36,636 bases of DNA from Candidatus Krumholzibacteriia bacterium (GTDB lineage Bacteria > Krumholzibacteriota > Krumholzibacteriia > Krumholzibacteriales > Krumholzibacteriaceae). The notes beneath the pieces are model-generated. The model made no database searches. It had not been told where the DNA came from and saw nothing but the letters and a program-made list of their open reading frames with translations. The position numbers and the translations under genes were made by a program. The stretch spans positions 1 through 36,636 of the forward strand of contig JBAZPL010000002.1 of assembly GCA_041648155.1 (NCBI GenBank). The letters are read 5' to 3'. Positions within the stretch are counted from its first letter, which is position 1, and every line of letters starts with the position of its first letter. Shown piece after piece: positions 1,854 to 36,636 of this stretch.

Positions 1854-4624
1854 TGCGTGCGACCTCCGTATCTGGCGAGATAGGCGCCAAGATATTTTCC
1901 CGTGAGCGACGCATCCGATTGTACGATGCTCTCCGGCGAGCCACAAGCGATAACCGTGCCACCCTCGTCCCCCCCACCCGGCCCGAGGTCGATCACGCGA
2001 TCCGACCAGGCGATCACCTCCATGTTGTGCTCGATGACCACGACCGTATGCCCGGCCGTCACGAGTTCCTCGAAAACGGCGAGGAGCCTGTCGACGTCGC
2101 TCATGTGGAGGCCGGTCGTCGGCTCGTCCATGATGTAGAGATTCCGCTGGCCGGCCGATTCGGCAAGCTCCCGGGCGATCTTGATCCGCTGCGCTTCCCC
2201 CCCCGAGAGGGTGTTCGACGGCTGGCCGAGCGTGAGATAACCGAGCCCCACTTTCGAGAGAATCCAGAGCTTTTCCCCCAGCTGCGGCGCCGCGTCGAAG
2301 AAGCGGATCGCGTCGTCGACCGTCATGGCGAGGACCTCGCTGATGTCCTTTCCCTTGCATCGCACCTCGAGCGTTTCCGCGTTGTAGCGCCTTCCCTCGC
2401 ATTCCTCGCAGGGGACGAAAACATCGGCCATGAAATGCATCTCAACCCTGCGAAATCCCATTCCCTGGCAGCGGGAGCAGCGGCCGCCCGATTTGTTGAA
2501 GCTGAACCGCCCGGGGTCGTATCCGCGCATGCGGGCGGCCTGCTGGGAGGCGAATATCTCGCGAATGAAGGAAAAACCCTTGATGTACGTGATCGGGTTC
2601 GAGCGCGGAGAGGAGCCGATCGGGCTCTGGTCGACGAGAAGCACGCGATCGAGCTTCCCCCGGACATCGCATCCCCTGAGTCTGAGACGGCTCGCCGAGA
2701 GCGGGTCCCTCGATACGACCGGATACAGGACGTCAACGACGAGGCTGCTCTTGCCGGAGCCGGAGACCCCCGTCACGCACGTAACAAGACCGAGAGGAAA
2801 GCTCGCATCGACGTTCTTGAGGTTATGCTCCGCGACTCCCTTGAGCTCGATCGAGCCGTATTGCCTGCGCTGCTTTTTCAACACGGTCGCGCCCGAGCGC
2901 CCGCGAAAGAGCCATTCGAGCGTTTTCGATTCCGGAGCGATCGCTGTGCGCGCCTGCTCGATCGTGCCGCTGAAGAGGACCTCTCCCCCGAGGCTCCCCG
3001 GACCCGGTCCGAGGTCAACGAGGTAATCGCACGAGCGGATGATATCGGGATCGTGCTCGACGACGAGAACGGTATTGCCGAGATCCCTGAGCCGTCCGAG
3101 CACCGAGACGAGCCGCTCGTTGTCGGCGGCGTGGAGTCCGATCGACGGCTCGTCGAGAATGTAGAGCGCGTCGACGAGATTCGCGCCGAGGGAGTTCGCG
3201 AGATTGATGCGCTGCGCCTCCCCCCCCGAGAGCGTGCGGGTCAGTCTGTCGAGCGTAATATACCCGAGGCCGACATCGATCATGAACCGAAGACGGGACG
3301 CGATCTCCGAAAGGATATCCCTGGCGATGCGCCGCTCCTGCTCGGTTAAGCGTATCCCCTCGATCGCCTCGAGAACCCGCGCAGGGATCATCCGGACAAG
3401 GTCGCGGATCGTGAAGTCCCCGATTCTCACGTTATACGCTCCACGCTTGAGTCTTCCCCCCTCGCACGTGCGGCACGTCGTGAAGGCCATGTATTTCCGC
3501 GTGAAGAAACGGTGCCCCTTCTTGTAGCTCTTTTCCCGCAGCTTCTCGAGGAAGGGAATCACGCCGAGGTATTTTCCTTCCCCTTCGAAGATGAGCTTCC
3601 TCGATTCCCCGGGAAGATCCATCCAGGGAACGCTTAGGGGAATGTGTTTCACGCGGCAGAATTCGATCAGCCGGTGTTGAAAATACGCAAAACGCTCGCG
3701 CGACCACGGATCGATCGCGAGTTTTTCTATCGATAGTCTTCTGTCCGGGATGATGAGATCCTCCGAGAACTCCATCCGGTCGCCGAATCCATGGCAATCG
3801 GGGCACGCGCCGTAGGGGCTGTTGAACGAGAAGAGGAGCGGGTTCGGCGCCTCAAAGGACGTTCCGCACGCGGAACAGAGCGGTGCCTGGGTGAAACGAT
3901 GCGCCGCGCCGCCGCCGGCTTCCGCTATCTCGATGCTTCCCGACGATTCGCGGTATGCGAGCTCCACGACCTCGGCGATGCGGGACCTGTTCGCCTCGAC
4001 CGCCTCGATGCGGTCGAGAAGCACCGCAATCTCCGCGCGCACGCCCTTTTCGATCGCGAACTCCTCGACGCGAACGGCTTCCCCCCCGGCAAAAAGCCTC
4101 GAATATCCCCTCGAGAGAAGATACCCGCGCCTCGTTTTCCATTCCGCGGAGTCGAAGGCGCCGAGCGACATGAGGAGGTTGATCCGTTTTCCGTCAAAGA
4201 GACGGATGATCTCCTGCGCCGCGTCGCTCGGGCTGTGCGCGCGCACCTCGATGCCGCAGCGCGGACAGACGGTTCGGCCGACGCGGGCGAAAAGCAGTCG
4301 AATATAGTCGTAGATCTCCGTCGCCGTTCCGACGGTCGAGCGCGCGCTCGTCACCGTGTTCTTCTGCCTGATTGCGATTGTGGGGCTCAGGCCGGATATA
4401 TCGTCGACATCGGGGCGTTCGAGCTTCTCGATGAACTGCCGGGCGTAGGTGGAGAGCGATTCGATGTAGCGCCGCTGGCCTTCGGCGAAGATCGTGTCGA
4501 AGGCGAGCGAGGACTTGCCGGAACCGGAAACACCCGTAATAACGATGAGGGTGCGCCTCGGGAGCTCGAGATCGACGTTCTTGAGATTATGCTGGCGCGC
4601 GCCGCGGATGATAATCGTGTCCAT
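1850..4624 (-). CDS. uvrA: Excinuclease ABC subunit A (UvrA)
   Basis: [64 protein letters not shown] matches the UvrA N-terminus. Two ABC modules are present (GVSGSGKSS twice, LSGGEAQR twice). The Cys4 zinc modules are CPRCG, CSACG..CPDCHG and CSRCQG..CEECEG. The track ORF starts 6 codons earlier (4642), but MDTIII fits the family N-terminus better. Confidence 0.9.
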
Positions 4625-16618: not shown

Positions 16619-17560
16619 TCAGTCGGGAAGAATGTGCGTGCCCACGTTCCCCTTGCAGGCGTCGAGCAGCATCGTGGCATCGGAGATGATGACCCGTTTT
16701 CCGCCCAATTCAAGAAAATCGATCGCGGCTTCAATCTTGGGACCCATGCTTCCCGGCGGAAACTCCCCCGCCTCATGGAGTTTTTTTATCTCGGCGAGCT
16801 TTATCCTGCGCAGCGCTTTCTGATTCGGCGTGCCGAAATGAACGTACACCTCGGAAACGCTCGTGAGAATCACGAGGCGCTCCGCCTGAGTCATCTCACC
16901 CAGAACCGCGGCCGCACGGTCCTTGTCGATAACCGCCTCGATACCGACGAGCTCGTTGCCGCTTCGCACGACCGGGATGCCGCCGCCGCCGACCGCGATG
17001 ACCACGACGCCGAGCTTGAAAAGCTTCACGATGATATCCGCCTCGACGATCTCGAGAGGCCGTGGGGAGGGTACGACTCGACGGTATCCGCGATTGGCGT
17101 CCATGACCATCCGGTACCCCTTTTCCCTGGCCAGGATCTCGGCCTCTTCCTTGCCATAGAAAAGGCCGATGGGCTTCGTCGGGTGCTCGAACGCTTCGTC
17201 CTCTTCCGAAACGACGACCTGCGACACGATCGTGACGACCTCGCGGTAGACTCCCCGAACACTCAGCTCGTTCCTGAGCGATTGCTGGATCATGTAGCCG
17301 ATCCCGCCCTGCGAATCGGCGCCGCACACATCGAGAGGCATCGGCGCTATGCGGCCCTTCACCGCCTCGTTCCGCTCGACGATGTTTCCCACGATGGGAC
17401 CGTTCCCGTGCGTGATGATCACCTTCCGGCCGGAGATGATGAGCTCGGCGACCTGTCGCATCGAGATCGACGTGAGCTCGCGCTGGGCCCCTATTGTCCC
17501 GCTTCCCTTTGTCGGAATGATCGCGTTTCCGCCGAGAGCGATGACGTCCATTCCACGCAC
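16619..17560 (-). CDS. arcC: Carbamate kinase
   Basis: DVIALGGNAI...VIITHGNGPIVGN...MPLDVCGADSQGGIGYMIQQ...VVPSPRP..IVE...VIAVGGGGIPV is the carbamate kinase signature. GTG start at 17560 with GGGAGG 9 nt upstream; an alternative ATG lies at 17551. Confidence 0.9.
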   Translation of the reverse strand: MRGMDVIALGGNAIIPTKGSGTIGAQRELTSISMRQVAELIISGRKVIITHGNGPIVGNIVERNEAVKGRIAPMPLDVCGADSQGGIGYMIQQSLRNELSVRGVYREVVTIVSQVVVSEEDEAFEHPTKPIGLFYGKEEAEILAREKGYRMVMDANRGYRRVVPSPRPLEIVEADIIVKLFKLGVVVIAVGGGGIPVVRSGNELVGIEAVIDKDRAAAVLGEMTQAERLVILTSVSEVYVHFGTPNQKALRRIKLAEIKKLHEAGEFPPGSMGPKIEAAIDFLELGGKRVIISDATMLLDACKGNVGTHILPD

Positions 17561-24904: not shown

Positions 24905-26188
24905 TCATCTGGCCGTTCCCAGACTGCGAAGTATCCTTTCACCCCGGTCGCTCCCCTTCTCGTAGCCATACCATCCTCCGGCGATCCTGCCGCGGATATC
25001 TATGATGTAATTGAGCGGCAGGGCGCTCTGCCCCTTCGCCGTTTGATATTGTTCATGGAATACTTCCCGCGCGACGGCCGTCGTATCGACGACGTTCCGG
25101 AACCGTATCATCTTCTCGCGAAGGAATTCCTCCGCCGGCTCCCTGCCGTCCGCGCAGTTGAAACCGAGCACGAGGAGCCCTTCTCCCGCGTATCTGTCTT
25201 GAAGGTTCTGAAGATGGGGGAGTTCCTTGCGGCACGGTACACAGCTCAGCCGCCAGAATGAGAGCCAGACGACCTTGCCGCGATGCTCCGACAGTCGGAA
25301 TCGCGTGCCGTCGAGAAGCACAAGATCGAAATCGGGCGCTTCGCTCCCCGGTCTCAGGAGACCGTCATCGAGCGATTGCAGCCGGTACTCCTCCCATCGG
25401 GCGGGCGGCTTCCACCTGAATTGATCTTTCGAAACCGCGCCGTTGACGACGACGTCGCGCCAACGCTCTCGCACGACGATATCGCGCTTCCCTCTCATCG
25501 TCTCTTCGAGCCTCCGGGGCAGGCGGTCGCGTCTCGAGATCCAGAACACCCTCGTCCGCCGGCCTTTCAGGTAGCTCGCCTCGATGATGTCGCACACCTC
25601 TCCGTCGACGTTGACCGAACCTGCGCTCTTCACGCTTTCGAGGAGCGCGTCCATGAGATCGGGACTTCCGTGGAAAATGCTCGGATCGATAATCGTCATC
25701 GACATCCCCGTGCCGAGAACGCTCGTTTCGCGCGCGATCGAATGACCGCCTTTCCCCGCGTCCTTCCGGAGATACGACCTCCGGACGTCGCGCGTGTTCG
25801 CCGCGGAATCGCTTTCATGGATGTAGGGTCTCCCGTCCGGCCAGTAAATCCACATCCGGCGGCCGTCGAGGATAAGGACGCCGGTCCTTGTCCCGTCCTC
25901 GCTTCTCGATTCGAGCCGCGCGAAGTTCGGCTTCTTGAGCAACAGCCGATAGCTCGAACGGCCGATCTCTTTCCCGCCGGTTTCCCGAACGTACTCGCTC
26001 TCATAGGAGAGAGCGCGCGCCTCACGCATCGCCGCGTGCATGGCCCGGTAGATCGCGAGCGCCGCGATGTCCCCTTTCACAACGGCGCCGGACTCTCGCC
26101 CGGGCGGAGCCGCGCCGGATACGGAGAATGTCGCGAGCGCCGAAAGTACGCCCGCAATGAGCATCGAAACGTTCCTGAGCGTCTTCAT
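24905..26188 (-). CDS. Fusion protein: LolA-like (DUF2092-type) domain plus TlpA/ResA-like thioredoxin-fold thiol:disulfide oxidoreductase
   Basis: Signal peptide MKTLRNVSMLIAGVLSALATFSVSGA. LSYESEYVRE...YRLLLKKPNFARLES...ILDGRRMWIYWP is lipoprotein-sorting-like. APDFDLVLLDGTRFRLSEHRGKVVWLSFWRLSCVPCRKELPHL carries a CxxC redox motif. The ATG at 26188 overlaps the upstream TGA (ATGA). Confidence 0.8.
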   Translation of the reverse strand: MKTLRNVSMLIAGVLSALATFSVSGAAPPGRESGAVVKGDIAALAIYRAMHAAMREARALSYESEYVRETGGKEIGRSSYRLLLKKPNFARLESRSEDGTRTGVLILDGRRMWIYWPDGRPYIHESDSAANTRDVRRSYLRKDAGKGGHSIARETSVLGTGMSMTIIDPSIFHGSPDLMDALLESVKSAGSVNVDGEVCDIIEASYLKGRRTRVFWISRRDRLPRRLEETMRGKRDIVVRERWRDVVVNGAVSKDQFRWKPPARWEEYRLQSLDDGLLRPGSEAPDFDLVLLDGTRFRLSEHRGKVVWLSFWRLSCVPCRKELPHLQNLQDRYAGEGLLVLGFNCADGREPAEEFLREKMIRFRNVVDTTAVAREVFHEQYQTAKGQSALPLNYIIDIRGRIAGGWYGYEKGSDRGERILRSLGTAR

Positions 26189-28332
26189 ACGAGTCCCCAC
26201 GCCTTCCTCAGTATCCACTCAACGCCGAGGAACAGGATGATGCCCATGAGAATCAGGACGTTTCCACGAACCTCGCGGATGTCGCTGCGTTCGACGCGCT
26301 GTTCGTCGAGACTCAGGTGCCGGGCGAGAGAGTCGAGCTCGGCGCCCTCGAGATATGAGCCTCCCGTGTCCTTCGCAATCCGTGCGAGGAGAGCCGCGTC
26401 CCGCGACGGATCGAGCAGCTCGACCGATACGCTCGCGACGGAGAAGGACGCCACCGCGGTCATTCCGCTCCCGGAGCCGGTCACTTCGGAGACGACCACG
26501 ACGTAATCGCCGGGGGGAAGCGGATCGAGCGTCGCGCGGTAATAACCACGCCGCTTCGGATCCGGCTCGAATGCGACGGTGCTCACGGCAATGTCGCGAC
26601 TCTCCCCTCTTTTTCGCACCTCTCCCCGTATTCCTTCCGGCGGGCGTCTGCTCCCGATATATGCGGCGAGCTTCACAGGGTCTCCGGCGCGATAGACGGT
26701 CCGGTCGGCGTCGATAGCGAGCGCGGGCGCGCCCGCGCCCTCGGCCATGCTCTGCACGAGCCCGCCGAAGAACGATTCGTAGATCCTCCGCCCCTCCTCG
26801 CCGGCAAGCTTCCACCTCCAGAGAGGAAACCCGAGAATCGCGCCCGAGAGCCCCTCGCCACACCGCCCAATAACAAGAAAGGGCGTCCGTGTCCCGCGAT
26901 CCTCGAGAACAAGCGGTATCCGCGATCCCGAAGCCGCCGCGAGTCCCGCGATTCTCGCCGGGAGCGGCGGCATGGCGTCGAGACCTCCATCCTCGGCGAG
27001 GCTTGAAGCGATCGCGTCGCCGACACCCTCCGCCGAAACCCGGGCGAAGCCCTCCGCGTATTCGATCCGCGGATTGGACACGCGCCGGAGGCCCAACAGC
27101 GGCTGAAGGAGATCGAACGATCCGGCTCTCGCCAGCGGAGAATTTTCGTCCGCGATGAAAAGAACGCTTCCTCCCGTCCGGACGTAGGCGTCGAGAGTTT
27201 CCACGTTCGGCCGCTCGTTGAAGAGCTTCGCGTCGTCCGAAACGATCACAAGGTCGTATCGCGCGATCCCGGCCGCGCCCGTGGGGAATGTCCACGGCCT
27301 TTTCCCGGGATCGATCACGAAACCCCTGTCCGCTACCCAGGAAACCGCTTCCACCTCGAGTCGTTCCGAGCCCTTGACGAGATCGCGCACGAAGGTCATG
27401 TTCCAGTCCGGATACTGATCGATATAGAGAATCCGCACCTTGTCCTTGAGAACGTCGAGGCGAAACGATTCGGCATTGTTTTCCCGGTGCTCCTCCCCCG
27501 CGACGGGCATCACCTTTACCGAGAGCCGGCGCTCTCCTTCCGCGTCAGCCGCATAGCTGAGCGAAGCGCTGATGAGCTCTTCATCCCTTTTCACGGAAAT
27601 GGTCGCGCTGTCCCTGATCTTTTCCCCTTCGAGGAGGCGCACGGCGATCGTTTTGCCCTTGAAGCCCGAGGCGCGGATAACCGCCTCGATGGGAACCTTC
27701 GTTCCCCGGTACGCTACGCGATCGGCGACGACTTCGTCGAGAGAGACGTCGGCCGTGCCGAGCGTATCACCGAAACCGATCGCATAAACCGGCGACGCGA
27801 CGATTTCACCCGACGAGACCATCCCGCGCGTGACACGTCCGTCCGTGAGGAGAATCAGTGCCGCGAGATTCCGGGCGCGGTACCTTTTCTGCGCGGCTCC
27901 GAGGGCGCCCCACAGGTCCGTGCCCTCCCCGTCGGCCCTGATCGCGCTGTCGGGCCGGAGCGGAAAGCTCGATAGCGCGTCCGCGAAGGGTATGACCTCG
28001 ACGTCCGTTTTCACACCGTCAAGCGCGGCGCGAAAACGCTCGAGACGATCGAGCGCGTCCTCGAGCCTCATTTTTCCCGACGAATCACGAATTTCCATGC
28101 TGCGTGAGCGATCGAGAAGGACGAGAACGAGCGGCTTCCTGATTTCGACCCTTTTCGAGATGAACACGGGATTGATGAGGAGAAGAGCGAGGAGAACGAA
28201 CGCCCCGATCCGCATCGCGACGAGGATCGCGCGCCGCGGGGCCGGAATGGGCGGAAACGTCCTTCGGTACAGGACGAACGATACTACCACGAGCGCGGCG
28301 GCGACGGATATTTTCCAGAGCTCGAGATGCAT
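26185..28332 (-). CDS. vWA-domain membrane protein (BatA-like N-terminal double-TM, vWA, GATase1-like middle region, C-terminal TM anchor)
   Basis: N-terminal TMs WKISVAAALVVVSFVLY and AILVAMRIGAFVLLALLLINPVF. The vWA MIDAS start is LVLVLLDRSRSM, with ...ILLTDG further on. RILYIDQYPDWNMTF is like the class-I amidotransferase-like fold seen in such proteins. C-terminal TM LILMGIILFLGVEWILRKAWGL. Confidence 0.8.
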   Translation of the reverse strand: MHLELWKISVAAALVVVSFVLYRRTFPPIPAPRRAILVAMRIGAFVLLALLLINPVFISKRVEIRKPLVLVLLDRSRSMEIRDSSGKMRLEDALDRLERFRAALDGVKTDVEVIPFADALSSFPLRPDSAIRADGEGTDLWGALGAAQKRYRARNLAALILLTDGRVTRGMVSSGEIVASPVYAIGFGDTLGTADVSLDEVVADRVAYRGTKVPIEAVIRASGFKGKTIAVRLLEGEKIRDSATISVKRDEELISASLSYAADAEGERRLSVKVMPVAGEEHRENNAESFRLDVLKDKVRILYIDQYPDWNMTFVRDLVKGSERLEVEAVSWVADRGFVIDPGKRPWTFPTGAAGIARYDLVIVSDDAKLFNERPNVETLDAYVRTGGSVLFIADENSPLARAGSFDLLQPLLGLRRVSNPRIEYAEGFARVSAEGVGDAIASSLAEDGGLDAMPPLPARIAGLAAASGSRIPLVLEDRGTRTPFLVIGRCGEGLSGAILGFPLWRWKLAGEEGRRIYESFFGGLVQSMAEGAGAPALAIDADRTVYRAGDPVKLAAYIGSRRPPEGIRGEVRKRGESRDIAVSTVAFEPDPKRRGYYRATLDPLPPGDYVVVVSEVTGSGSGMTAVASFSVASVSVELLDPSRDAALLARIAKDTGGSYLEGAELDSLARHLSLDEQRVERSDIREVRGNVLILMGIILFLGVEWILRKAWGLV

Positions 28333-28471: not shown

Positions 28472-28930
28472 CTAATCGGTCTTGTGCCCCGGCGAGCTCG
28501 CGACCCGTGCGCCGTTGCCGCCTGACGCCGAATTCTCGCCGGAATCGACGGACTTCGCTCCGGCGTCGCCCGACGTCTTCTTGTAGCTCTTCACGGCCTC
28601 GTCGACCGTATCGAAGCTCTGGAGAATAGTTTGAAACTCGAGCAGCTCGAAAACCTCGAAGACGTCCCCGATCATCGCCGCGAGCCTCAGATCGCCGCCG
28701 TTCTCGCGAATCGATTTGATCTCGCCGATGAAGATGCCCCAGCCCGCCGAACTGATGTAGTTCACGCCGCCGAGGTCTACGACGATATTGTAACGACCCT
28801 TTTTGAGAAGTCTCTTCAGGCTCTCCTCGAGCTCGGCCGATGTGGTAGTATCCACGTACCCCTGAACGGACAGCACCGATACTTCCGCATTCTCCTCAGG
28901 TCTCGAAAATGATACGTTGATCCCTTCCAT
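28472..28930 (-). CDS. STAS-domain protein (anti-sigma-factor-antagonist family) with a low-complexity C-terminal tail
   Basis: VLSVQGYVDTTTSAELEESLKRLL.....NIVVDLGGVNYISSAGWGIFIGEIKSIRENGGDLRLAAMIGDVFEVFELLEF is the SpoIIAA/RsbV-like fold. The Ser pair lies in YISSAGWG (nt 28736-28759). Confidence 0.88.
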   Translation of the reverse strand: MEGINVSFSRPEENAEVSVLSVQGYVDTTTSAELEESLKRLLKKGRYNIVVDLGGVNYISSAGWGIFIGEIKSIRENGGDLRLAAMIGDVFEVFELLEFQTILQSFDTVDEAVKSYKKTSGDAGAKSVDSGENSASGGNGARVASSPGHKTD

Positions 28931-28954
28931 ATCAACCTCGTTTCTAAAGCCCTT

Positions 28955-29329
28955 TCACGAATCCTGAATCTTTGTATTCTGATGCATCGCGAAGGCGGCG
29001 AGCGCCTCCTCCTTCGTGTTGTACGGCTTCAGGAGCGTATTGAACTCAAGAAGATCGAATACTTCCCGCACGTCGACGTGCATCGACGCAAGCTTGATGT
29101 CCCCGTTCCGCTGCCTGATTCCCTTGATCTCCCCGACGAAGATACCCCACCCTGCGGAGCTGATGTAGTTCACGTCGCCGAGATCGGCGACGATCCGAAC
29201 GCTGTTCGACGAGACGAGATCGTTGAACTTGTCCTCGAGGAACTGTGCCGTGCCCGAATCGATGATCCCGCGCAGTTTCAGAACGACGACATTATCCACG
29301 AATTCTTCATCAATAACAAGCTTGTCCAT
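28955..29329 (-). CDS. STAS-domain protein (anti-sigma-factor-antagonist family)
   Basis: VVVLKLRGIIDSGTAQFLEDKFNDLV...VRIVADLGDVNYISSAGWGIFVGEIKGIRQRNGDIKLASMHVDVREVFDLLEF, with the motif at nt 29144-29167. I prefer the ATG at 29329 (AGGAGAGG upstream). The track start at 29371 would sit 3 nt after the TPR gene stop. Confidence 0.88.
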   Translation of the reverse strand: MDKLVIDEEFVDNVVVLKLRGIIDSGTAQFLEDKFNDLVSSNSVRIVADLGDVNYISSAGWGIFVGEIKGIRQRNGDIKLASMHVDVREVFDLLEFNTLLKPYNTKEEALAAFAMHQNTKIQDS

Positions 29330-29374
29330 AAATCTGCCGGTCCTCTCCTGTGCCCGTCCCCATACTAGCAAACT

Positions 29375-30493
29375 TCAGTCCAATAATGCCTTAAGAAGGA
29401 TAAATATGCCTTGCCGGTCGTTCTCGGATAACCGCAGGTTTTTCTGGGCCTTTTGATAGTTGGTGTTTATCTCGAGAGCCTTGCGGAAGGCCTTGCTCGC
29501 CCTGTCCATATATATCTTGCATTTTGCAGTATATAGAATGCCAAGGCTGTTGTAACCATCCGCAAAGGTCGGGTTCTGGTCGACAATTTCCCGCACCCGG
29601 TCGAGATATCTCTCGATCTCTCCCTCCTGGAACTCCTCCCCGTCGTAGAGCAGCATCATATAGAGATCGAGAATGATATCGTCGATGCCGCCGCGGGCCG
29701 ACAGCTGCTTCGCCGACTCGAGAATCCCGTATGCGCCGTCGTAGTCCTTCTCCCTGAAAAGTGAGCGCGCCTCCTCGAGGCGGTCGTGCATGAGGTACGG
29801 ATCGAGCTGCTCCGCGCGCTCGAGGTTGCTCAGAAAAGTCGATTCGAGTTCGCGCGAGAGCTCGTAATCCTCCTTCACGATGGTGTTGAGGAGATAGGCG
29901 CGCGCGAGGTTGAGGTAAGACTCGCCATAGTAGAGGTTGAGCTCGATGGCCCGCTTGAAGCACTCGATCGCCGGCTTGCATTTCTGCTGCTTGAGATAGA
30001 CCTTGCCGAGAAGGTTGTGCATGTCGGGGTAATCCGGCGTGACCTCGATGCCGGCCCGTGTCGCCTCGAAAGCCCTCTCGAAATCTCCCATCTCGTAGTA
30101 CGACTCCCCGACGATCATGCTGGAAAGGGAATCCTTGTTCCCTTTCTTGATGGCTTTTTGCGCCTCCTGGATCGCTTCCTGATAGAGATGCCGCTTGAAG
30201 AGCGCTTGGGCGATTTTGAGATGCGGCTTCGGATCCTCCGAGGAACGGATGCGTTCGCTCACGCCGAGGATGAGCATGAATTTCTGTTTGTTCTCGAGAT
30301 GCGCTTCCTTCGTCGCGCGACGCACGTCGTCGGGCGCTCCCTTGCCGTCGATCGCCGTCTGAACCGTATCGAAGAGAACACCGTCTTTGAAAAACGAGCT
30401 CTGGATGACGCCCTTTTTCTGTAGAAGACTCGTCTGGAGGAAATACTTCTTCCCCCCGTGATCGATCTCTTCTCTCAATTCAAAACTGGTCAC
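29375..30493 (-). CDS. TPR-repeat protein with a non-TPR N-terminal ~90 aa
   Basis: Repeated 34-aa A/Y/G patterns: IAQALFKRHLYQEAIQEAQKAIK, GESYYEMGDFERAFEATRAGIEVTPDYPDMHNLLGKVYLKQQKCKPAIECFKRAIELN, NSLGILYTAKCKIYMDRASKAFRKALEINTNY. Confidence 0.85.
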   Translation of the reverse strand: MTSFELREEIDHGGKKYFLQTSLLQKKGVIQSSFFKDGVLFDTVQTAIDGKGAPDDVRRATKEAHLENKQKFMLILGVSERIRSSEDPKPHLKIAQALFKRHLYQEAIQEAQKAIKKGNKDSLSSMIVGESYYEMGDFERAFEATRAGIEVTPDYPDMHNLLGKVYLKQQKCKPAIECFKRAIELNLYYGESYLNLARAYLLNTIVKEDYELSRELESTFLSNLERAEQLDPYLMHDRLEEARSLFREKDYDGAYGILESAKQLSARGGIDDIILDLYMMLLYDGEEFQEGEIERYLDRVREIVDQNPTFADGYNSLGILYTAKCKIYMDRASKAFRKALEINTNYQKAQKNLRLSENDRQGIFILLKALLD

Positions 30494-30544
30494 TGTGCCT
30501 TCCTTCGTGCAGGGCGCCGCGCCGCGCGCCGGCGGGATCGGACG

Positions 30545-31321
30545 CTAGAGAACCGGCGCCGCCTCCGCGCTATCCGCGCGCGAACGTTCGAGCCCGAGGA
30601 TCTCCTCGGTGAGATGATAATAATCGAACGCGCCCCGCGAAAGCGGCGCGTGCTCGAATACCGTCTTGTTCTGTCCGGGAGCCTCCCGTATCGCCGCGTT
30701 CATCCGTATGATCGTCGTGAATATCCGCTCTCCGAAGCGCTCGCGGAGATCGCCGAGCATCAGGTGCGACAGCCGGATCCGGGAATCGTAAAACGTGGGC
30801 AGCAGCCGAAACGATATGGGCTTCCGGCTGTTGAGCGTTTGAATCTCCTCGATGATGCTTGCCGTTTGCTCGGCGCCCGCCCGCGAAAGGTAATCCATGG
30901 AGACGGGAATGATGACCTCGTCGCAATAGGCCAGCGCGTTGATATTGATGAGATTGAGGGACGGCGAGCAGTCGCATATCACGTAATCGCATCCCTTGAG
31001 GTGCTTGAGAGAATCCGCCAGCCTCCGCTCGCGGTGCTCCCTCGCTCCGAGTTTGAGCTCGACCTCGGCGAGCTTGCGCCCTCCCGAGTCGATGAAAAAC
31101 AGATTGTCGCGCACCTGGAGGATGTCGACGTCTCCCGAGGTAAGAAGATCCGCGAGCCCTTTCGGACTCTCGACTCCGAAGGTTACCGCGACACTCCTCT
31201 GCGGATCGCAATCGATGAGAAGAACGCGGCGGCCGGACAGGGAGAGGCCGTGGGCGAGGCTGACCGCGGTAGTGGTCTTCCCCGTCCCCCCCTTCATCGT
31301 CATGATCGCGTATCGTTTCAT
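30545..31321 (-). CDS. ParA/MinD-superfamily ATPase (orphan ParA-like; no ParB nearby)
   Basis: MKRYAIMTMKGGTGKTTTAVSLAHGLSLSGRRVLLIDCDPQ carries the deviant Walker A KGGxxGKT. Also DYVICDCSPSL (Walker B region) and ...YDSR. The start lies 3 nt after the stop of the 1420-aa gene. Confidence 0.9.
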   Translation of the reverse strand: MKRYAIMTMKGGTGKTTTAVSLAHGLSLSGRRVLLIDCDPQRSVAVTFGVESPKGLADLLTSGDVDILQVRDNLFFIDSGGRKLAEVELKLGAREHRERRLADSLKHLKGCDYVICDCSPSLNLININALAYCDEVIIPVSMDYLSRAGAEQTASIIEEIQTLNSRKPISFRLLPTFYDSRIRLSHLMLGDLRERFGERIFTTIIRMNAAIREAPGQNKTVFEHAPLSRGAFDYYHLTEEILGLERSRADSAEAAPVL

Positions 31322-31324
31322 AAG

Positions 31325-34300
31325 CTATCTCTTCCGGCGCTTCGGGTTCTTTTCCGACTCCGAAAGCTTCTTCCCGTATTCTTCCCACCCCAGTTTCTTG
31401 ATGCGGTGGTCCTTGTCCTCGCGCACATCCGTGCGCTGTTTGAAGTCGATAAAGATGACTTTTTCCTCTTCCTTCACGGTCTTCAGCGGCTCGAGAGGAA
31501 TGATGTCCGCCTTGCCGAGGAGCGCGGAAGCGAGATCCTGCCCCGCATCAGCCTGTTCGACCGGCGCGTCGGGAACGGGAGCATCCTTTCTCGGGCGGCT
31601 CTCCGCCCCTGCCGGCACGATCTTCCCCTTTCGTACGGCTTCCCCGAGGTTCTTCGGAAGCCGGAGCTCCTCGAGCGCGCGCTCGAGCGTCCCGAAATGC
31701 GGGATGAGCGGCTCGAACCCGAGGTCTCTGAATATCTTCAGGATCGTCGAATTCATCCCCGCGAGAGCGAGCGCGCCCCCCGAAGCCCCCAGCTTCTGCA
31801 TATACTTGACGACGATGCCCCACCCGCTGCTGCTTATATATACCATATCGGAAAGATCGAGCACAAGGTGCGCGGGATTCTCGGCGAGACACTGTTCCAG
31901 CCTGCTTTCGAGCTCGTCGGACGTCGAAGAGTCGACGGCACCGCCGATCGAGAGCACGATGATTCCCTTCGGACCGTCCGTCGCCTTTGCGACGCCGATC
32001 GCGAGTCCCGGTTCGACACGTTTCGCGCCGGCCATTCCTTCGGGAATCGGCTGAACGGATTCCCCAAGCGCCTCCGCTTCGATTGCGTCCTCGTATCCGT
32101 CCCCCGCCGGCGACGGAACCTTGAAATTCTCGATGGCCTCGCTGAGGACGCCGAAGGAGCGCATGATGGAATCGAATCCGAGCATGTGGAAAATGCTGTG
32201 AACCTCTTCATCCATGCCGAATATCTTGAAATCTCCTTCGCGCGCGCGGATATCCTTTATCCGCGACGCGAAGACGCCCCACCCGCTCGAGCTCACATAT
32301 TCCACTCGCGACATATCGACAACGAGCTTCACGATGCCCCGATCGACGAAGCTGTCCAGGACCGAGCGGAGCTTGACGCAGCTCACCGTATCGATAACGC
32401 CGTCGAGATAGAGGATCGTGATTTCGCCGCGCTCGCCGACGGTTCCCGCCTCGATTTTGAGCGCTGTCCACGGAGTCTCGTCGCCCGGAACGTCGAGAAT
32501 CTCGGGAGCGCCGGGCGATTCGGAAGCCTGTCTCACCTCGAGAGGCTTGAGCGCCGCGCGTCGCCGCGACACTTCTTCGAGCCGCTTCTCGCGCTCGACA
32601 AGCGACAAGGTTACGTATCCGACAGCCGCCTCGACGTCCGGGAACTGCATGATGATCTCCTGAAAACCGAGGAGCTCGTAGATATCATACACTTCGCTCG
32701 ACATACCGGCGAGGACGACATCCCCCTCTCCCTCCCTGAGCAATTTCACTCTGCCCGTGAATATTCCCCAACCGCCGCTCGAAATATAGGTCACGTCCTT
32801 GAGATCGACGATGATCTTTCGATAGCCGTACTCGTAGACGCTTTCGAGGATTCCCTCGAGCTCTCCCACCGAAGATGAATCGAGATGCCCCTTGACCCGA
32901 AGAACGACAATCCCTCCCTCGAGCTCCTCCGACGTGACCTCGACAGCCCGCCCCTCACCCACCGCGTATTCCGTTTTATGCGCGACATTCCGGTCGCGGG
33001 CCCCCGTGGGCACGAGCTTCGCCTGGCGGGCCGCGCGGGCGGGGCGGGGAGCGGGCGCTTCGGCGATCTCCGGTTCATCGGAAATAGAAGCGATCCCGTC
33101 TCCAGCGGCGAGTTTGAAAGCATCCGGCTCCGCGCGCACCTGCGCGGCCAGCAGCGCCTTGAACTGCTCGTCGGTGATGATCTTGTTGCGGCGCAGGTAT
33201 TCGAGTCTCAGATCGTACGTATTGAGGCGGATGCGTTTCAGCTCGTCGTAGACGATCGCTTGGGTAAGACGCTCCTTTTCCTCTTTCTCTTCGTTGAACA
33301 GGTCCGCGATCTTCTTCGCGCCGTATTTCGGATTCTTCTTGATGATCTCGAGTATGCCCTTGCGCTGCTCGAGACTCACCCGTTTGATGTCGTCCTCTAT
33401 TCGAAGCGTCTTGTCCTGAAGCCCCCGGTCACCCATCTCGACGACGCGTTTCTTGTATCGATAATAGGTCGACGGCGAAACCTTCATCATCCGACACGCT
33501 TCGGCGACGGGCATTCCCTGGATCTCGACGAGATCGAGGAGCTTCTTGCGGATGCCGTAGAGCACCTCGTCCGCCATGAGTTTTTCCTTGATCGCGACGA
33601 CGGTGATATCGTCGTTCTGCGGCATGTCGCCGGTGAACTCCTTGATCGCTTCGCTCAAACGGTCGATAAACTCCTGCGGGGAGAGCTTCCCGCTCGCCTT
33701 GATGAGCTGAATGAGACGCTCTTCGCCGTACTGATCGCGGTTGACGTTCATCGCTTCCGTCACGCCGTCGGTGTAGATGACGAGCATGTCGTCTTTCTTG
33801 AGCTTGATCTTCTCGACGTCGATCGAGCGGCGAAACAGCGTATCGTCGGGAAGACTGATCCCGACGGGAAATCCGCGGGGATTGAGGAAATACGTTTCGT
33901 CCGTCTCCGCGCGGTAGAGAATCATCGGATTGTGCCCCGCGCTCGCGTAGCTGATGATTCGGTTTTTCGAATCGAGGATCGAATAGAAGATCGTGACGAA
34001 CATTCCCTTTTTCATATCTTCCGTCACGAAGTCGTTCATTCGGGACATGACCTCGGCGGCGGAGTAATTGCCGCGCGCTTCCATCCTGAGCGCGGTCCGT
34101 ATCATCGTCATGACGAGCGATCCGGGCACGCCCTTGCCCGAGACGTCCGCCACGACGACCCCGAGCGTATCCTCGTCGACCTTCACGAAGTCGTAATAAT
34201 CCCCGCCGACCTCTTTTGCGGCTTTGTAGTAGCTCGCGATATCGTAGCCGCCGATTTCGGGAACGCGCTTCGGAAGGAGGGTGTGCTGGATCTCCTGGGC

Positions 34301-35587
34301 GACCTGCATCTCTTTCTGCAGGCGTTCTTGCTCGACGACATTCTTCTGCGCTGCGCGGAACTTCGAGGTGATTTCGTTGAACGCCCGCGCGATCTCGCCG
34401 ATCTCCTTGGGACCTTCGATCTTGATCTCGTCGTTGAGCGAGCCTTCCCCGATAGCGCGCACGCCTTCCGTGAGCGCCTGAATCGGCCGCACGAAAACCG
34501 CGATAAGGAGATAGATGAGCGCCACGCCCGCGGCGAACACGCCGACGAGGAGCAGCGTCATCATCGGCCTCGGATCGACCAGGTCTTCGACGACCATGGC
34601 TATCGAGACGCCCGTGACGATCCTGCCGATCGGTTCGGCGTTCGCCCGTTCCGTCCCCGCCCGGTACACGGGCTGATGGAACTCCCTGACCGCGCCGACT
34701 CCCGGCATTTGAACGGTGCGCGACGCGCCTTCCTTCGTGAGCGATCCCGCCTCGGCCGGAATGTCGTACGCCGAGAGAAGTTCGTCGACGTCGCTCGAGG
34801 CGATGACGATTCCGTCCCTGTCGACGAGCCTGATATATCTCGTCTCGGGATATTTCTTGATCTGCTTGATGAAGGTGTCGCTCAAGCGCGTGCGCTCGAC
34901 CGAATACTGATCCTCGCCGAGAGCGTTTTCGCTCGCCGTGGCGATATTCTCGGCGACGGCTTTTCGCTGGAGCCACGCCTGCGCGTACCTCCCGCGAACC
35001 TCCTGCGTCTGTCGATAGAACAGTATCGACCAGAGAAACACGATGAGCCCGAAAAGACCGAGCGTCGCGCGCAGCGCGAATTTGAAGCGGAGCGTCGAAG
35101 TCCACCGGGGCCTCATGAGCGAAGCGAAGAGCGGTCTCTGGGCGCCCGATGCGGTCGAGCTCTTCGCCATGTAGAGCCGGTTGCCCCCCGGCGCGGCCGA
35201 ATAGCTGAGGGTGTCCATGAGCCGGTTCATGAGGTAAATGCCGAGTCCGCCCTTTTTCCCCATCTCGACGTAGAGATCGAGGTCGGGCTCCTTCACTTTC
35301 GACCAGTCGAACGGCTCCCCCCGGTCGAAGATGTTGATCTCGACCTTCCCCGGCTCGGCCTGGACGTCGATCCTGACGTCCCCCACTTTATCCCGGTATG
35401 CGTGCTTGATGATGTTCGTGCAGGCTTCGTCCACGGCGAGCTTCGTATTGGCCGTCTCGCTCTTCGAGAAACCCGCGCGATCGCAGATAGCGGCGATGAA
35501 GTCCCTGACCTCGCTCAGGTTGTTCTCGTCGGCGGGTACCTCGAGATGAAACGTTTCACGATCGGTGAGGAAATCCTTCTTCTTCAC
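31325..35587 (-). CDS. 1420-aa multidomain signalling protein: RsbW/SpoIIAB-like Ser kinase, TM, extracytoplasmic sensor, TM, HAMP, PP2C/SpoIIE phosphatase, transposase-like double HTH, STAS x3, basic C-terminal tail
   Basis: Uninterrupted 4263-nt ORF. The GTG start at 35587 overlaps the upstream TGA (GTGA). Domain motifs are listed in the sub-features below. Codon usage is like the neighbours, and all alternative-frame ORFs here are Arg/Pro-rich shadows. Confidence 0.88.
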   Translation of the reverse strand: MKKKDFLTDRETFHLEVPADENNLSEVRDFIAAICDRAGFSKSETANTKLAVDEACTNIIKHAYRDKVGDVRIDVQAEPGKVEINIFDRGEPFDWSKVKEPDLDLYVEMGKKGGLGIYLMNRLMDTLSYSAAPGGNRLYMAKSSTASGAQRPLFASLMRPRWTSTLRFKFALRATLGLFGLIVFLWSILFYRQTQEVRGRYAQAWLQRKAVAENIATASENALGEDQYSVERTRLSDTFIKQIKKYPETRYIRLVDRDGIVIASSDVDELLSAYDIPAEAGSLTKEGASRTVQMPGVGAVREFHQPVYRAGTERANAEPIGRIVTGVSIAMVVEDLVDPRPMMTLLLVGVFAAGVALIYLLIAVFVRPIQALTEGVRAIGEGSLNDEIKIEGPKEIGEIARAFNEITSKFRAAQKNVVEQERLQKEMQVAQEIQHTLLPKRVPEIGGYDIASYYKAAKEVGGDYYDFVKVDEDTLGVVVADVSGKGVPGSLVMTMIRTALRMEARGNYSAAEVMSRMNDFVTEDMKKGMFVTIFYSILDSKNRIISYASAGHNPMILYRAETDETYFLNPRGFPVGISLPDDTLFRRSIDVEKIKLKKDDMLVIYTDGVTEAMNVNRDQYGEERLIQLIKASGKLSPQEFIDRLSEAIKEFTGDMPQNDDITVVAIKEKLMADEVLYGIRKKLLDLVEIQGMPVAEACRMMKVSPSTYYRYKKRVVEMGDRGLQDKTLRIEDDIKRVSLEQRKGILEIIKKNPKYGAKKIADLFNEEKEEKERLTQAIVYDELKRIRLNTYDLRLEYLRRNKIITDEQFKALLAAQVRAEPDAFKLAAGDGIASISDEPEIAEAPAPRPARAARQAKLVPTGARDRNVAHKTEYAVGEGRAVEVTSEELEGGIVVLRVKGHLDSSSVGELEGILESVYEYGYRKIIVDLKDVTYISSGGWGIFTGRVKLLREGEGDVVLAGMSSEVYDIYELLGFQEIIMQFPDVEAAVGYVTLSLVEREKRLEEVSRRRAALKPLEVRQASESPGAPEILDVPGDETPWTALKIEAGTVGERGEITILYLDGVIDTVSCVKLRSVLDSFVDRGIVKLVVDMSRVEYVSSSGWGVFASRIKDIRAREGDFKIFGMDEEVHSIFHMLGFDSIMRSFGVLSEAIENFKVPSPAGDGYEDAIEAEALGESVQPIPEGMAGAKRVEPGLAIGVAKATDGPKGIIVLSIGGAVDSSTSDELESRLEQCLAENPAHLVLDLSDMVYISSSGWGIVVKYMQKLGASGGALALAGMNSTILKIFRDLGFEPLIPHFGTLERALEELRLPKNLGEAVRKGKIVPAGAESRPRKDAPVPDAPVEQADAGQDLASALLGKADIIPLEPLKTVKEEEKVIFIDFKQRTDVREDKDHRIKKLGWEEYGKKLSESEKNPKRRKR
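31664..31981 (-). other. Domain: STAS 3, aa ~1203-1308
   Basis: IIVLSIGGAVDSSTSDELESRLEQCL...HLVLDLSDMVYISSSGWGIVVKYMQKLGASGGALALAGMNSTILKIFRDLGF. YISSSGWG is at nt 31817-31840. Confidence 0.85.
32120..32455 (-). other. Domain: STAS 2, aa ~1045-1156
   Basis: ITILYLDGVIDTVSCVKLRSVLDSF...KLVVDMSRVEYVSSSGWGVFASRIKDIRAREGDFKIFGMDEEVHSIFHMLGF. YVSSSGWG is at nt 32276-32299. Confidence 0.85.
32612..32935 (-). other. Domain: STAS 1, aa ~885-992
   Basis: VVLRVKGHLDSSSVGELEGILESV...KIIVDLKDVTYISSGGWGIFTGRVKLLREGEGDVVLAGMSSEVYDIYELLGF. YISSGGWG is encoded at nt 32765-32788 (verified by hand translation). Confidence 0.85.
33188..33574 (-). other. Domain: double helix-turn-helix resembling transposase N-terminal DNA-binding modules, aa ~672-800
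   Basis: GMPVAEACRMMKVSPSTYYRYKKRVVEMGDRGLQDKTLR...SLEQRKGILEIIKKNPKYGAKKIADLFNEE...LTQAIVYDELKRIRL has the pattern of IS630/IS481/IS3-type HTH pairs. No DDE catalytic domain follows. Confidence 0.6.
33587..34255 (-). other. Domain: PP2C-type (SpoIIE/RsbU family) Ser phosphatase, aa ~445-667
   Basis: AQEIQHTLLP...GGDYYDF...GVVVADVSGKGVPGSLVM...FVTIFY..LD.....ISYASAGHNPMILY...GDMLVIYTDGVTEA...NDDITVVAIK contains the metal-binding Asp motifs. Confidence 0.88.
34328..34489 (-). other. Domain: HAMP linker, aa ~367-420
   Basis: RPIQALTEGVRAIGEGSLNDEIKIEGPKEIGEIARAFNEITSKF follows TM2 directly (classic P-x-x-x-L ... E-I-G-x-L-A-x-A-F-N pattern). Confidence 0.8.
34490..35074 (-). other. Domain: TM1, ~150-aa extracytoplasmic (Cache-like?) sensor, TM2, aa ~172-366
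   Basis: Hydrophobic LRATLGLFGLIVFLWSILFY and MMTLLLVGVFAAGVALIYLLIAVF flank a soluble segment containing YIRLVDRDGIVIASSD. The Cache-like assignment is a guess from this pattern only. Confidence 0.6.
35162..35560 (-). other. Domain: anti-sigma-factor-type serine kinase (HATPase_c_2-like), aa ~10-142
   Basis: LEVPADENNLSEVRDFIAAICDRAGFS...TKLAVDEACTNIIKHAY (N-box), INIFDRGEPFD (G1), KKGGLGIYLMNRLMD (G2). Confidence 0.8.
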
Positions 35588-36636
35588 CGTTTTCCCTCCG
35601 GGACGCCTGTATTCTCAAGCCGCTTCCGGGCTTCCTCGATATTTTTCGAGACGCTTTCGTTATCGGGATCGATGTCGAGAATCTTCTTCCACTGCTCGAT
35701 GGCGCTCGTATACTTGCTCTGGGTAAAGAACTTCAGCCCTTCGATGTAGAGCGCGCGAACCTGCGCTTTCTCCTTGTCGGTGAGCGGCGTCATGCGGCGC
35801 TGGGCGCGGAGCAGGAGCTTCCGCCCCTCCTCGTGGGTCGGCTCCAGTCTGAGGAGCTCGCCGAGCTCGGCGGACGCGTCGGCATATCTTCCGTCCCCGA
35901 ACGCCTTCACGGCTCCGTCGAAGAGCTCCATGACCCTCAGCCTCTTGCTCGTTTGCGTATAATCCCTGCTCATCTCGTCGAGACGCCGGTTGATCCGGTC
36001 CGCGGCTTGCTTCGCCTCGGCCGATTCGGGATCGAGCGTCCGCACGACGTTCCATTCGCCGAGGGCGGCCGCGAGCTGCCCTCGCCGCTCAAGATCGATC
36101 GCCTGGACCCGGTGCTGCTCGGCGAGGCTTCCGAGCTTCTCCTCCGTTTTCCCGAGATACTCGCGCGCATTTACGTTCGACGAATCGAGCTCGAGGACGT
36201 TGCGCCACTCCGCACGGGACAAAACGTAATCGTCCTTGCTGTAATAATCGAGGCCGAGCCTGAAATGCCGGCTGATGAGGGCGGCCTTTTCGGCATCCTG
36301 CGTGCGCGCCTCCTCCTTCGCAAGAATGGTGCGCTCCACGACGGCGAGCGTTTCGGAGACGGCGACGTCCGTGGGATCGTACTCGAGGGCGATCTTGAGC
36401 TCGTCGAGCGCTTTGCCGAGCGCGCCTTCCTTCCGGTAGCGCTCCGCCTCGCCCACGTGGCCGGAAATCCGCTTCGCAAGGATCTGCTGGATGCGTCTCT
36501 CCTCTTCGGCGAGGAGGCGCTGCTCGCGGGTAGCGATCTTCTCCTCGATCGAAGCGCCGATGCGGTACGATAGCGTCAGAGGATGCGAGCTCCCTGCGTC
36601 GCCGCGGCTGAAGTAGCCGTAGTCGAACGAGAAGCC
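35584..36636 (-). CDS. TPR/coiled-coil protein, C-terminal part; the gene continues past the right edge of the window
   Basis: The track shows 35584..36456 from a GTG, but the same frame stays open to base 36636 (upstream residues GFSFDYGYFSRGDAGSSHPLTLSYRIGASIEEKIATREQRLLAEEERRIQQILAKRISGH). TPR-like units include GALGKALDELKIALEYDP, YVLSRAEWRNVLELDSSN, LAAALGEWNVVRTLDPES, YADASAELGELLRLEPTH and YTSAIEQWKKILDIDPDN. Confidence 0.75.
   Translation of the reverse strand, partial: GFSFDYGYFSRGDAGSSHPLTLSYRIGASIEEKIATREQRLLAEEERRIQQILAKRISGHVGEAERYRKEGALGKALDELKIALEYDPTDVAVSETLAVVERTILAKEEARTQDAEKAALISRHFRLGLDYYSKDDYVLSRAEWRNVLELDSSNVNAREYLGKTEEKLGSLAEQHRVQAIDLERRGQLAAALGEWNVVRTLDPESAEAKQAADRINRRLDEMSRDYTQTSKRLRVMELFDGAVKAFGDGRYADASAELGELLRLEPTHEEGRKLLLRAQRRMTPLTDKEKAQVRALYIEGLKFFTQSKYTSAIEQWKKILDIDPDNESVSKNIEEARKRLENTGVPEGKR

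Follow-up and report, generated by a model that had tools for sequence, protein, structure and literature searches.

We analysed a 36,636-nucleotide (nt) stretch of DNA (hereafter the window) from Candidatus Krumholzibacteriia bacterium (GenBank assembly GCA_041648155.1, contig JBAZPL010000002.1, positions 1 to 36,636), focusing on a helix-turn-helix (HTH) module inside a 1420-amino-acid (aa) signalling protein encoded by an open reading frame (ORF) at 31325..35587 on the minus strand (hereafter the megaprotein). Pfam and NCBIfam searches resolve the megaprotein into an RsbW-like kinase, a transmembrane (TM) helix, an sCache domain, a second TM helix, a HAMP domain, a PP2C phosphatase, the two HTH subdomains (HTH1 and HTH2), three STAS domains and a C-terminal tail. 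An earlier interpretation made from the letters alone (hereafter the sequence-only reading) had described aa ~672–800 as a transposase-like double HTH. This segment corresponds to 33188–33574 of the window, where translation of the plus strand gives no meaningful peptide; the feature lies on the minus strand and reads ADEVLYGIRKKLLDLVEIQGMPVAEACRMMKVSPSTYYRYKKRVVEMGDRGLQDK...IVYDELKRIRL...EYLRR.

Identity and predicted fold of the HTH module

Sequence profiles place the segment among transposase-type HTHs. HTH_23 (PF13384) matches aa 680–723, scoring 28.5 bits on the whole protein and 33.0 on the isolated segment (gathering score 24.6; E 5e-8), and HTH_28, HTH_29, HTH_32 and HTH_Tnp_1 match the module at E-values of 1e-5 to 1e-6. 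On HTH2, HTH_32 (PF13565) scores 24–26 bits, under its gathering threshold of 33.7. The IS481 transposase model (NCBIfam NF033577) aligns over both subdomains, with its positions 2–113/114 of 284 covering aa 680–799 (E 1.8e-15 for the segment and 6e-14 for the whole protein), and the IS3 and IS630 transposase models match the module at 3e-8 and 6e-7. Measured against the full IS481 model, the megaprotein reaches 52–57 bits, far under the 224-bit cut-off. No rve/DDE family is found in the megaprotein by Pfam at E<=1: after aa 815, a variable linker and then STAS stand in place of the DDE core. The inverted repeats around the module are short, with 70–90% complementarity, and are consistent with chance. 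The sequence-only reading, which had noted the lack of both a catalytic DDE region and terminal inverted repeats (TIRs), was correct on these points, and the transposase core has been lost from the module.

The AlphaFold2 model of aa 666–815, built on 30 family sequences, has a mean pLDDT of 86.3 and contains nine helices in two bundles, with the two three-helix HTHs joined by a flexible linker. In this model, HTH1 begins with a long helix (aa 667–688) that runs on from the last PP2C strand and is followed by helices at 694–701 and 705–718, while HTH2 has helices at 739–751, 757–765, 776–785 and 791–800 and reaches a pLDDT of 89.9 when modelled alone. For the module as a whole, Foldseek ranks Pax5/Pax6 paired domains on DNA, TnsB/MuA N-termini and SETMAR/Mos1 on TIR DNA highest; HTH2 alone matches solely (winged) HTH nucleic-acid binders, the best being Pax6 (TMq 0.65, root-mean-square deviation 1.4 A). 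All Foldseek E-values are non-significant (>=0.1), and the structural similarity is therefore qualitative support only; the statistical support for the predicted HTH identity comes from the sequence profiles. The assignment of HTH2 as an HTH follows from the IS481 model alignment, the AlphaFold2 fold and its (winged) HTH neighbours in Foldseek taken together. Run as a profile against PDB sequences, the module gave only one weak TetR-like HTH match (3o60, E 0.008). There is also weak similarity to Sigma70_r4_2 (E 0.003–0.03, far below threshold), and a complex of sigma region 4 with an anti-sigma factor (3hug, probability 0.69) is among the Foldseek matches of the module.

Conservation and charge of the module

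The homologue search returned more than 100 full-length proteins of 1380–1560 aa with identities down to ~45%. Those that are named are labelled Krumholzibacteriota or Latescibacterota, and nearly all have HTH Pfam matches. Conservation was scored on an alignment of 113 full-length homologues. The HTH region is gap-free throughout, i.e. homologous megaproteins do keep the module, and its mean column entropy of 0.98 compares with 0.49 for PP2C, 0.91 for the kinase, 1.1–1.2 for the first two STAS domains (STAS1 and STAS2) and 2.3–2.8 for true linkers. The recognition helix of HTH1 (V703-SPSTYYRYKKR-714) is nearly invariant, and L728, R729 and R736 at the linker edges and G756, K758, Y780, E782, L783, R785, N789, R794 and R800 in HTH2 are fully so. 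Within aa 668–805, 50 positions are >=95% conserved, 13 of which are Lys/Arg.

The module is also the sole basic domain of the megaprotein. Its net charge is +9 with an isoelectric point (pI) of 9.7 (family mean +11.4, pI ~10); every other domain is acidic (e.g. STAS1 at -11 and the kinase at -5) and the pI of the whole protein is 5.1–5.4. The alignment points to an old module under strong purifying constraint. By its profile matches and predicted fold, the segment is a true IS481/IS3-type HTH module, bipartite and paired-like, that was domesticated long ago. The domestication proposed by the sequence-only reading is thereby borne out by more than 100 homologues, strong constraint and the lack of both core and TIRs.

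Kinase, phosphatase and STAS domains of the megaprotein

The kinase keeps its N box, as well as the core Asp/Gly residues of its G1 and G2 boxes, in 113–114 of 114 sequences. The metal-binding residues D463, D481, D607, D659 and D660 of PP2C are invariant, and in the alignment of 113 homologues PP2C adjoins HTH1 with no variable linker between them. The three fused STAS domains are separated by variable linkers, and their nearest solved relatives are SpoIIAA and RsbV. Two of the phospho-acceptor serines (S936 and S1099) are invariant and the third (S1252) is present in 106 of 114 sequences. With little or no variation in the kinase boxes, PP2C aspartates and STAS serines, the enzymatic layer looks functional as judged by its motifs. 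TM1 and TM2 are the sole hydrophobic segments in a Kyte-Doolittle scan of the megaprotein.

The C-terminal tail is highly variable outside the motif RI[KR]KLGWxxYGxxL. A third HTH in the tail was considered and rejected, with HTH hidden Markov models (HMMs) giving E>0.2 on all 114 tails; the motif could be a contact peptide for ParA, the membrane or DNA.

Two observations concern the gene itself. Long ORFs of 806 and 954 aa (30458–32878 and 32885–35749, both on the plus strand) run antisense to the megaprotein gene; in DNA of 60% GC, these are more likely to be shadow ORFs than genes. In two metagenome-assembled genomes (MAGs), L019 (P0121) and L021, the megaprotein gene is broken into several ORFs (for example, a PP2C fragment with the HTH, then STAS, then STAS-STAS), which reflects either frameshifts or long-read assembly errors.

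Other architectures and taxonomic distribution

A word-index search with the isolated 144-aa segment found two fragments only, and an exhaustive profile search, covering 1.84 billion representative proteins, was used instead. This gave 952 matches at E<=1e-3, of which 194 have E<=1e-10. Their architectures, derived with local HMMs and Pfam, form three groups: (i) proteins with a kinase-Cache-HAMP-PP2C-HTH core that either end there (~800–930 aa) or continue into a TPR/BTAD-like tail or one to three STAS domains; (ii) proteins with two tandem N-terminal copies of the module followed by a GT2 processive glycosyltransferase; and (iii) true IS481-like transposases (HTH_32 + rve), which appear only at E ~6e-13, compared with 1e-60 for family members. 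The HTH-GT2 proteins (P0183, P0191, P0200, P0207, P0222 and P0263) are up to 2949 aa long, and one such gene (L005, 8001–11423, plus strand) lies within an exopolysaccharide cluster.

The occurrence of the same sensor core with differing endings indicates that PP2C-HTH is the ancestral core and that the STAS array is a later fusion. Calling the module an insert, as the sequence-only reading did, is therefore misleading. A scan with one genome per species found PP2C-HTH relatives in 96 genomes, all of them MAGs, mostly of Krumholzibacteriota and also of Latescibacterota, Zixibacteria, Gemmatimonadota, FCPU426 and UBP1.

Stand-alone STAS proteins with an HTH2-like extension

In Zixibacteria, Gemmatimonadota and FCPU426, where the sensor ends after the HTH, the adjoining STAS protein (~220–280 aa) has a C-terminal HTH2-like extension and a basic tail. 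The HMM of the megaprotein HTH matches the extensions in L083 and L085 at E 3e-10 and 2.7e-7, and a profile–profile comparison (hhalign) aligns the extension with HTH2 in register (96.5% probability, E 8e-10); Pfam gives weak HTH_21 and HTH_Tnp_Tc3_2 matches. All 120 best database relatives (P0275–P0394) have the extension, with a net charge of ~+9, and keep the STAS serine motif. They are mostly from Zixibacteria and are annotated merely as anti-sigma antagonists. A profile made from L083 and L085 alone matches 106 of these 120 relatives. STAS and transposase-type HTH domains are thus fused in both orders, which provides a Rosetta-stone argument for their joint function.

Gene neighbourhood and search for sigma factors

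Coordinates of the megaprotein domains and neighbouring genes are collected in Table 1. Gene order around the megaprotein is conserved between the window and four related genomes (47–100% identity): a giant adhesin gene is followed by genes for a TPR/PorP-SprF-like protein, the megaprotein, a ParA/BcsQ-like ATPase, a 372-aa TPR protein, two STAS proteins, a ~715-aa protein, an LTD protein and others. The signalling genes are part of a ~30-kb conserved cluster headed by a Big_1/Invasin_D3 adhesin of 3400–4500+ aa, which lies beyond the window. The stop codon of the upstream TPR gene overlaps the megaprotein start, and the full-length version of this gene in L001 and L003 has a weak PorP_SprF match. 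We take the pairing of an adhesin with a PorP/SprF-like protein to be reminiscent of SprB/SprF of type IX secretion and gliding.

Table 1. Features of the HTH module, the megaprotein and the surrounding locus (positions in the window, except in the last row, where they are positions in the loci named).
Feature	Position (nt)	Strand	Basis
Predicted transposase-derived bipartite HTH module (whole), aa 667–815	33143..33589	-	Pfam, NCBIfam, AlphaFold2, conservation
HTH1, aa 667–726	33410..33589	-	HTH_23 above gathering score; HTH_28/29; AlphaFold2 helices
Flexible inter-subdomain linker, aa 727–735	33383..33409	-	AlphaFold2 pLDDT <50 at aa 728–733
HTH2, aa 736–800	33188..33382	-	IS481 model alignment; sub-threshold HTH_32; AlphaFold2
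RsbW/SpoIIAB-type GHKL serine kinase, aa 17–142	35162..35539	-	HATPase_c_2 E 8e-31; NCBIfam RsbW E 9e-24
TM1 (aa 170–191), periplasmic sCache (206–328), TM2 (342–366) and HAMP (361–405)	34373..35080	-	Pfam sCache_3_2, HAMP
PP2C/SpoIIE serine phosphatase, aa 472–667	33587..34174	-	SpoIIE E 2.6e-51
Three STAS domains, aa 890–988, 1058–1141 and 1203–1304	31676..32920	-	STAS E 4.5e-57, 3 stretches
C-terminal motif RI[KR]KLGWxxYGxxL and Lys/Arg-rich tail, aa 1395–1420	31328..31405	-	Alignment of 114 C-termini
TPR/PorP-SprF-like gene, 3' part (~630 aa whole), cut by window end	35584..36636	-	Pfam TPR
ParA/BcsQ/MinD-superfamily ATPase	30545..31321	-	AAA_31 E 2e-34, CbiA; starts 4 nt past megaprotein stop
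372-aa TPR protein	29375..30493	-	Pfam TPR; conserved in syntenic loci
Two stand-alone STAS genes (28955–29371 and 28472–28930)	28472..29371	-	STAS E 7e-17 and 2e-19; TIGR00377
STAS-HTH2-like genes	L079 8054–8749, L081 4971–5657, L082 7924–8610, L083 10013–10696, L085 6440–7282		

The sequence-only reading did not mention the ParA-like neighbour. In the syntenic loci its start lies 4 nt past the megaprotein stop codon or overlaps that codon. The BcsQ and ParA_partition models are both sub-threshold on the encoded ATPase, with BcsQ giving the best full-length similarity. Of 86 related loci, 64 have the gene, among them those of the short STAS-less forms L079, L081 and L082, and it is a frequent partner, not an obligatory one; an obligatory link between ParA and the HTH is rejected because L078, L085, the P0154 locus and the HTH-GT2 locus keep the HTH without it.

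No sigma-70 family gene was found by Pfam among the ORFs of the window, and no sigma-70 or separate anti-sigma gene lies within +-10 kb in the four related genomes. RpoE and SigF probes, both confirmed by Pfam as bona fide sigma factors, gave no match in stop-to-stop ORFs of >=70 aa from the 86 related loci (6–10 kb around), and the P0154 locus likewise contains no sigma factor. The claim of the sequence-only reading that the window lacks sigma-70 and anti-sigma genes stands for sigma genes and for separate anti-sigma genes. It does not extend to the RsbW/SpoIIAB-type domain within the megaprotein itself (aa 17–142). A sigma/anti-sigma pair immediately beyond the window, which that reading had raised as a possible counter-argument, is absent from the four genomes surveyed, and none of the 86 loci has a sigma gene.

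Among the remaining genes, the conserved 715-aa protein (26185–28332, minus strand) has a sub-threshold VWA_2 match and no other family. A 437-aa protein (24905–26218, minus strand), with an AhpC/TSA peroxiredoxin domain in its C-terminal third only, occurs in the window/L001 version of the cluster and in no other of the four syntenic loci with called genes. Elsewhere in the window are genes for UvrA, an epimerase, OmpA, lipopolysaccharide-core transferases, a radical-SAM protein, Sua5 and similar proteins. In L003, the spacer between the second STAS gene and the gene for the 715-aa protein (~17280–17420) has a perfect 21-nt inverted repeat, GGCTGATTGATATTTTCAAAA ... TTTTGAAAATATCAATCAGCC, flanking ~110 nt, with a third half-site, TGATTGATATTT, downstream; this repeat is absent from the other loci.

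Comparison with known systems

The megaprotein shares its three enzymatic and substrate domain families with the canonical RsbU-RsbV-RsbW and SpoIIE-SpoIIAA-SpoIIAB systems, including intact catalytic and phospho-acceptor motifs. It differs from them in being fused, in having several STAS domains, in lacking a sigma factor in the operon and in carrying an HTH where no canonical system has one. The module itself resembles the N-termini of IS481/IS3/IS630 transposases, Tc1/mariner and Pax proteins in having two three-helix HTHs joined by a flexible basic linker. Unlike IS481-type transposases, the megaprotein has neither a DDE/rve domain nor TIRs, and the module is immobile, held between PP2C and STAS. 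ToxR, CadC and TcpP have an N-terminal OmpR-type winged helix and a single TM helix, with no kinase, phosphatase or STAS layer; the megaprotein resembles them in combining a periplasmic sensor with a (here predicted) cytoplasmic DNA-binding domain on one membrane-spanning polypeptide.

The closest all-in-one partner-switch protein is Rv1364c of Mycobacterium tuberculosis, a sensor-PP2C-GHKL kinase-STAS regulator that acts on SigF (PMC7693655). Both have the whole partner-switching set in one polypeptide, and Rv1364c phosphorylates and dephosphorylates its own STAS domain. Rv1364c is, however, cytoplasmic, with another domain order, one STAS domain and no HTH, whereas the megaprotein has an N-terminal kinase, spans the membrane, and contains three STAS domains and a DNA-binding-type module with no sigma factor nearby.

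The closest mechanistic precedent is CapK/CapS, in which CapS is a STAS-winged HTH (wHTH) repressor and CapK an HTH-STAS-GHKL protein with a SpoIIAB-like kinase (Chambers et al., EMBO J 2026, PMC13373217). Phosphorylation by CapK of a conserved serine in the CapS STAS domain breaks the dimer and releases DNA, without a sigma factor (PMC13373217). The likeness to the megaprotein lies in STAS and HTH on one polypeptide, the SpoIIAB/RsbW-like GHKL kinase and the lack of a sigma factor, and the STAS-HTH2-like proteins beside short-form sensors have the CapS domain order. There are also clear differences: (i) the HTH of the megaprotein is bipartite and of transposase type, compared to the MarR-like wHTH of CapS; (ii) the megaprotein adds PP2C, a periplasmic Cache sensor, membrane anchoring and a three-STAS array; (iii) CapK/CapS is found beside phage-defence operons, whereas the megaprotein lies in an adhesin/envelope cluster; and (iv) DNA binding by CapS is experimental (PMC13373217), while that of the megaprotein is predicted. 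Sequence searches of the PDB with the STAS-HTH2 protein and with aa 666–1000 gave only SpoIIAA, RsbV and TM1442-type chains and detected no kinship in sequence with CapS, in a set that possibly did not include the CapS chains.

Partner switches with outputs other than sigma factors are established, e.g. the STAS-glycosyltransferase All4160 of Anabaena (PMC13555669). This and CapS (2026) weaken the description in the sequence-only reading of a DNA binder as an unusual output for STAS/RsbW signalling, and a phospho-gated, STAS-linked DNA binder is no longer unprecedented as a concept. Our searches of the literature on Krumholzibacteriota anti-sigma factors and on domesticated bacterial transposase HTHs turned up no account of this architecture, of a PP2C-HTH fusion or of the megaprotein family. 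Within the reach of these searches, novelty lies in the domain architecture and its transposase origin, in the conservation across lineages and in the STAS-HTH fusions of both orders.

A possible DNA-binding output and its alternatives

In the best-supported reading, to which we give about an even chance, a partner switch without a sigma factor uses the HTH module as its DNA-binding output, gated by STAS phospho-state; DNA binding, its gating by STAS phosphorylation and the target genes are all points that we infer. In such a scheme, the periplasmic sCache/HAMP sensor would set PP2C activity, and the in-cis kinase and phosphatase would together set the phospho-state of the conserved STAS serines, both those of the three fused domains and those of the two free downstream proteins. 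This phospho-state would gate the availability or oligomeric state of the adjoining HTH module, which would bind DNA from its place at the membrane, as ToxR/CadC do, and regulate transcription, most likely that of the megaprotein's own envelope/adhesin gene cluster. This logic would match that of CapK/CapS, again without a sigma factor. Several features make an output by DNA binding plausible: the basic charge, the 13 invariant Lys/Arg residues, the paired-like fold, the STAS-HTH2 fusions with their CapS domain order and the CapK/CapS precedent. The alternative output offered by the sequence-only reading, release of a DNA-binding fragment, found no support.

Several observations weigh against a DNA-binding output. 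The two TM helices tether the megaprotein to the membrane and limit its access to DNA, the Foldseek matches are non-significant, and the partner of a basic HTH could just as well be one of the acidic domains, STAS or kinase. The module is fused to GT2 glycosyltransferases as well, where a role as a transcription factor is less obvious. The sigma search covered loci only, and a sigma factor may be encoded elsewhere in the genome. Furthermore, no operator motif is shared by the ParA-TPR, TPR-STAS and STASb-P715 (second STAS gene to 715-aa protein gene) intergenic regions of four loci, and recurrence of 8-mers across 48 syntenic loci yielded only GC-rich low-complexity words and no site; the word TTTTGACG recurs in six of the 48 loci, which may be closer relatives. 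This operator hunt covered internal intergenic regions, not the main promoter upstream of the giant adhesin gene.

The same evidence can be read in other ways. It is unlikely, though worth serious consideration, that the HTH is a protein–protein module or sigma surrogate without DNA binding, i.e. an in-cis client of the RsbW-like or acidic STAS domains, gripped as anti-sigma factors grip sigma region 4, or a rigid spacer or dimerization element coupling PP2C to STAS, with the real output residing in, for example, the ParA-like ATPase, the TPR proteins or the adhesin machinery. PP2C and HTH1 have no variable linker between them and are bridged by the conserved long helix at aa 667–688, the charges of the HTH (+9) and of STAS1 (-11) and the kinase (-5) are complementary, the operator hunt was negative, and partner switches with non-transcriptional outputs are known (PMC13555669). 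The faint resemblance to Sigma70_r4_2 and the 3hug match point the same way, although the former is far below threshold. A protein–protein role sits less easily with the retention of an invariant, canonical transposase-HTH recognition-helix signature, with the keeping of both subdomains and the flexible linker of a bipartite DNA binder, or with the HTH2-like extensions on free soluble STAS proteins, which resemble CapS, a DNA binder. Somewhat less probable still is a positioning role, in which the megaprotein would be a ParB- or McdB-like adaptor that contacts DNA and/or the ParA/BcsQ-like ATPase through the HTH, and perhaps the C-terminal motif, to place the signalling/adhesin complex. The ParA-superfamily gene does lie 0–4 nt past the HTH-bearing gene in most complete loci, recurs beside the short STAS-less forms of Zixibacteria and Gemmatimonadota, and is most similar over its full length to BcsQ, a localization factor of a membrane synthase; the basic C-terminal motif is conserved too. 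The absence of the ParA-like gene from several HTH-keeping loci (L078, L085, P0154 and HTH-GT2) argues against this role, as do the lack of any ParB-type domain, CTPase fold or ParB family match in the megaprotein (Pfam/NCBIfam) and a near-invariant recognition helix that suggests a specific rather than a non-specific ligand. In a more far-reaching version, the megaprotein would be a self-contained, membrane-anchored switch whose transposase-derived HTH replaces sigma as the client and is masked in cis by the RsbW-like domain or the phospho-STAS array. Dephosphorylation of STAS, driven by the sensor, would unmask it, one polypeptide thereby leading from a periplasmic ligand to a bound promoter, and the ParA/BcsQ-like ATPase would couple its DNA contact to placement of a giant-adhesin secretion complex. 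This version seems to us just as improbable as the positioning role.

A classical partner switch, with the RsbW-like domain sequestering a distally encoded sigma factor and the HTH serving an accessory role such as autoregulation, ranks slightly lower again. It would account for the presence of GHKL kinase, PP2C and STAS, all catalytically intact by motif, and the all-in-one relative Rv1364c interacts with a SigF encoded elsewhere (PMC7693655). No sigma gene was found in the 86 loci or within +-10 kb in the complete genomes, however, and this explanation does not account for an HTH that equals the catalytic domains in conservation and accompanies PP2C in every architecture. Finally, there is a negligible chance that the segment is a functionless transposase insertion, whether recent or in decay, or an artefact of annotation or assembly. 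Beyond the similarity to the N-termini of IS481/IS3/IS630 transposases, little fits it: the reading frame is continuous, the module is gap-free in the 113 full-length homologues and present in ~96 species genomes of several phyla, and real transposases appear only at E ~6e-13, compared with 1e-60 for family members. An active or decaying insertion sequence is ruled out by this conservation together with the lack of a DDE core and of TIRs.

Significance

Few bacterial signalling devices are as widespread as partner-switching modules (i.e. GHKL kinase, PP2C and STAS), which in many genomes lack an obvious sigma target. In uncultured lineages of the FCB superphylum (i.e. Krumholzibacteriota, Latescibacterota, Zixibacteria and Gemmatimonadota), their output may be a captured IS481-type DNA-binding module, fused to either the sensor phosphatase or a STAS protein. 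Hundreds of database entries named only 'anti-sigma factor antagonist' hold an unannotated HTH of this type. If DNA binding proves true, the STAS-HTH logic of CapK/CapS would extend from phage-defence operons to envelope/adhesin regulation, and the megaprotein family would clearly exemplify, in bacteria, how part of a transposase is domesticated within a signalling protein.

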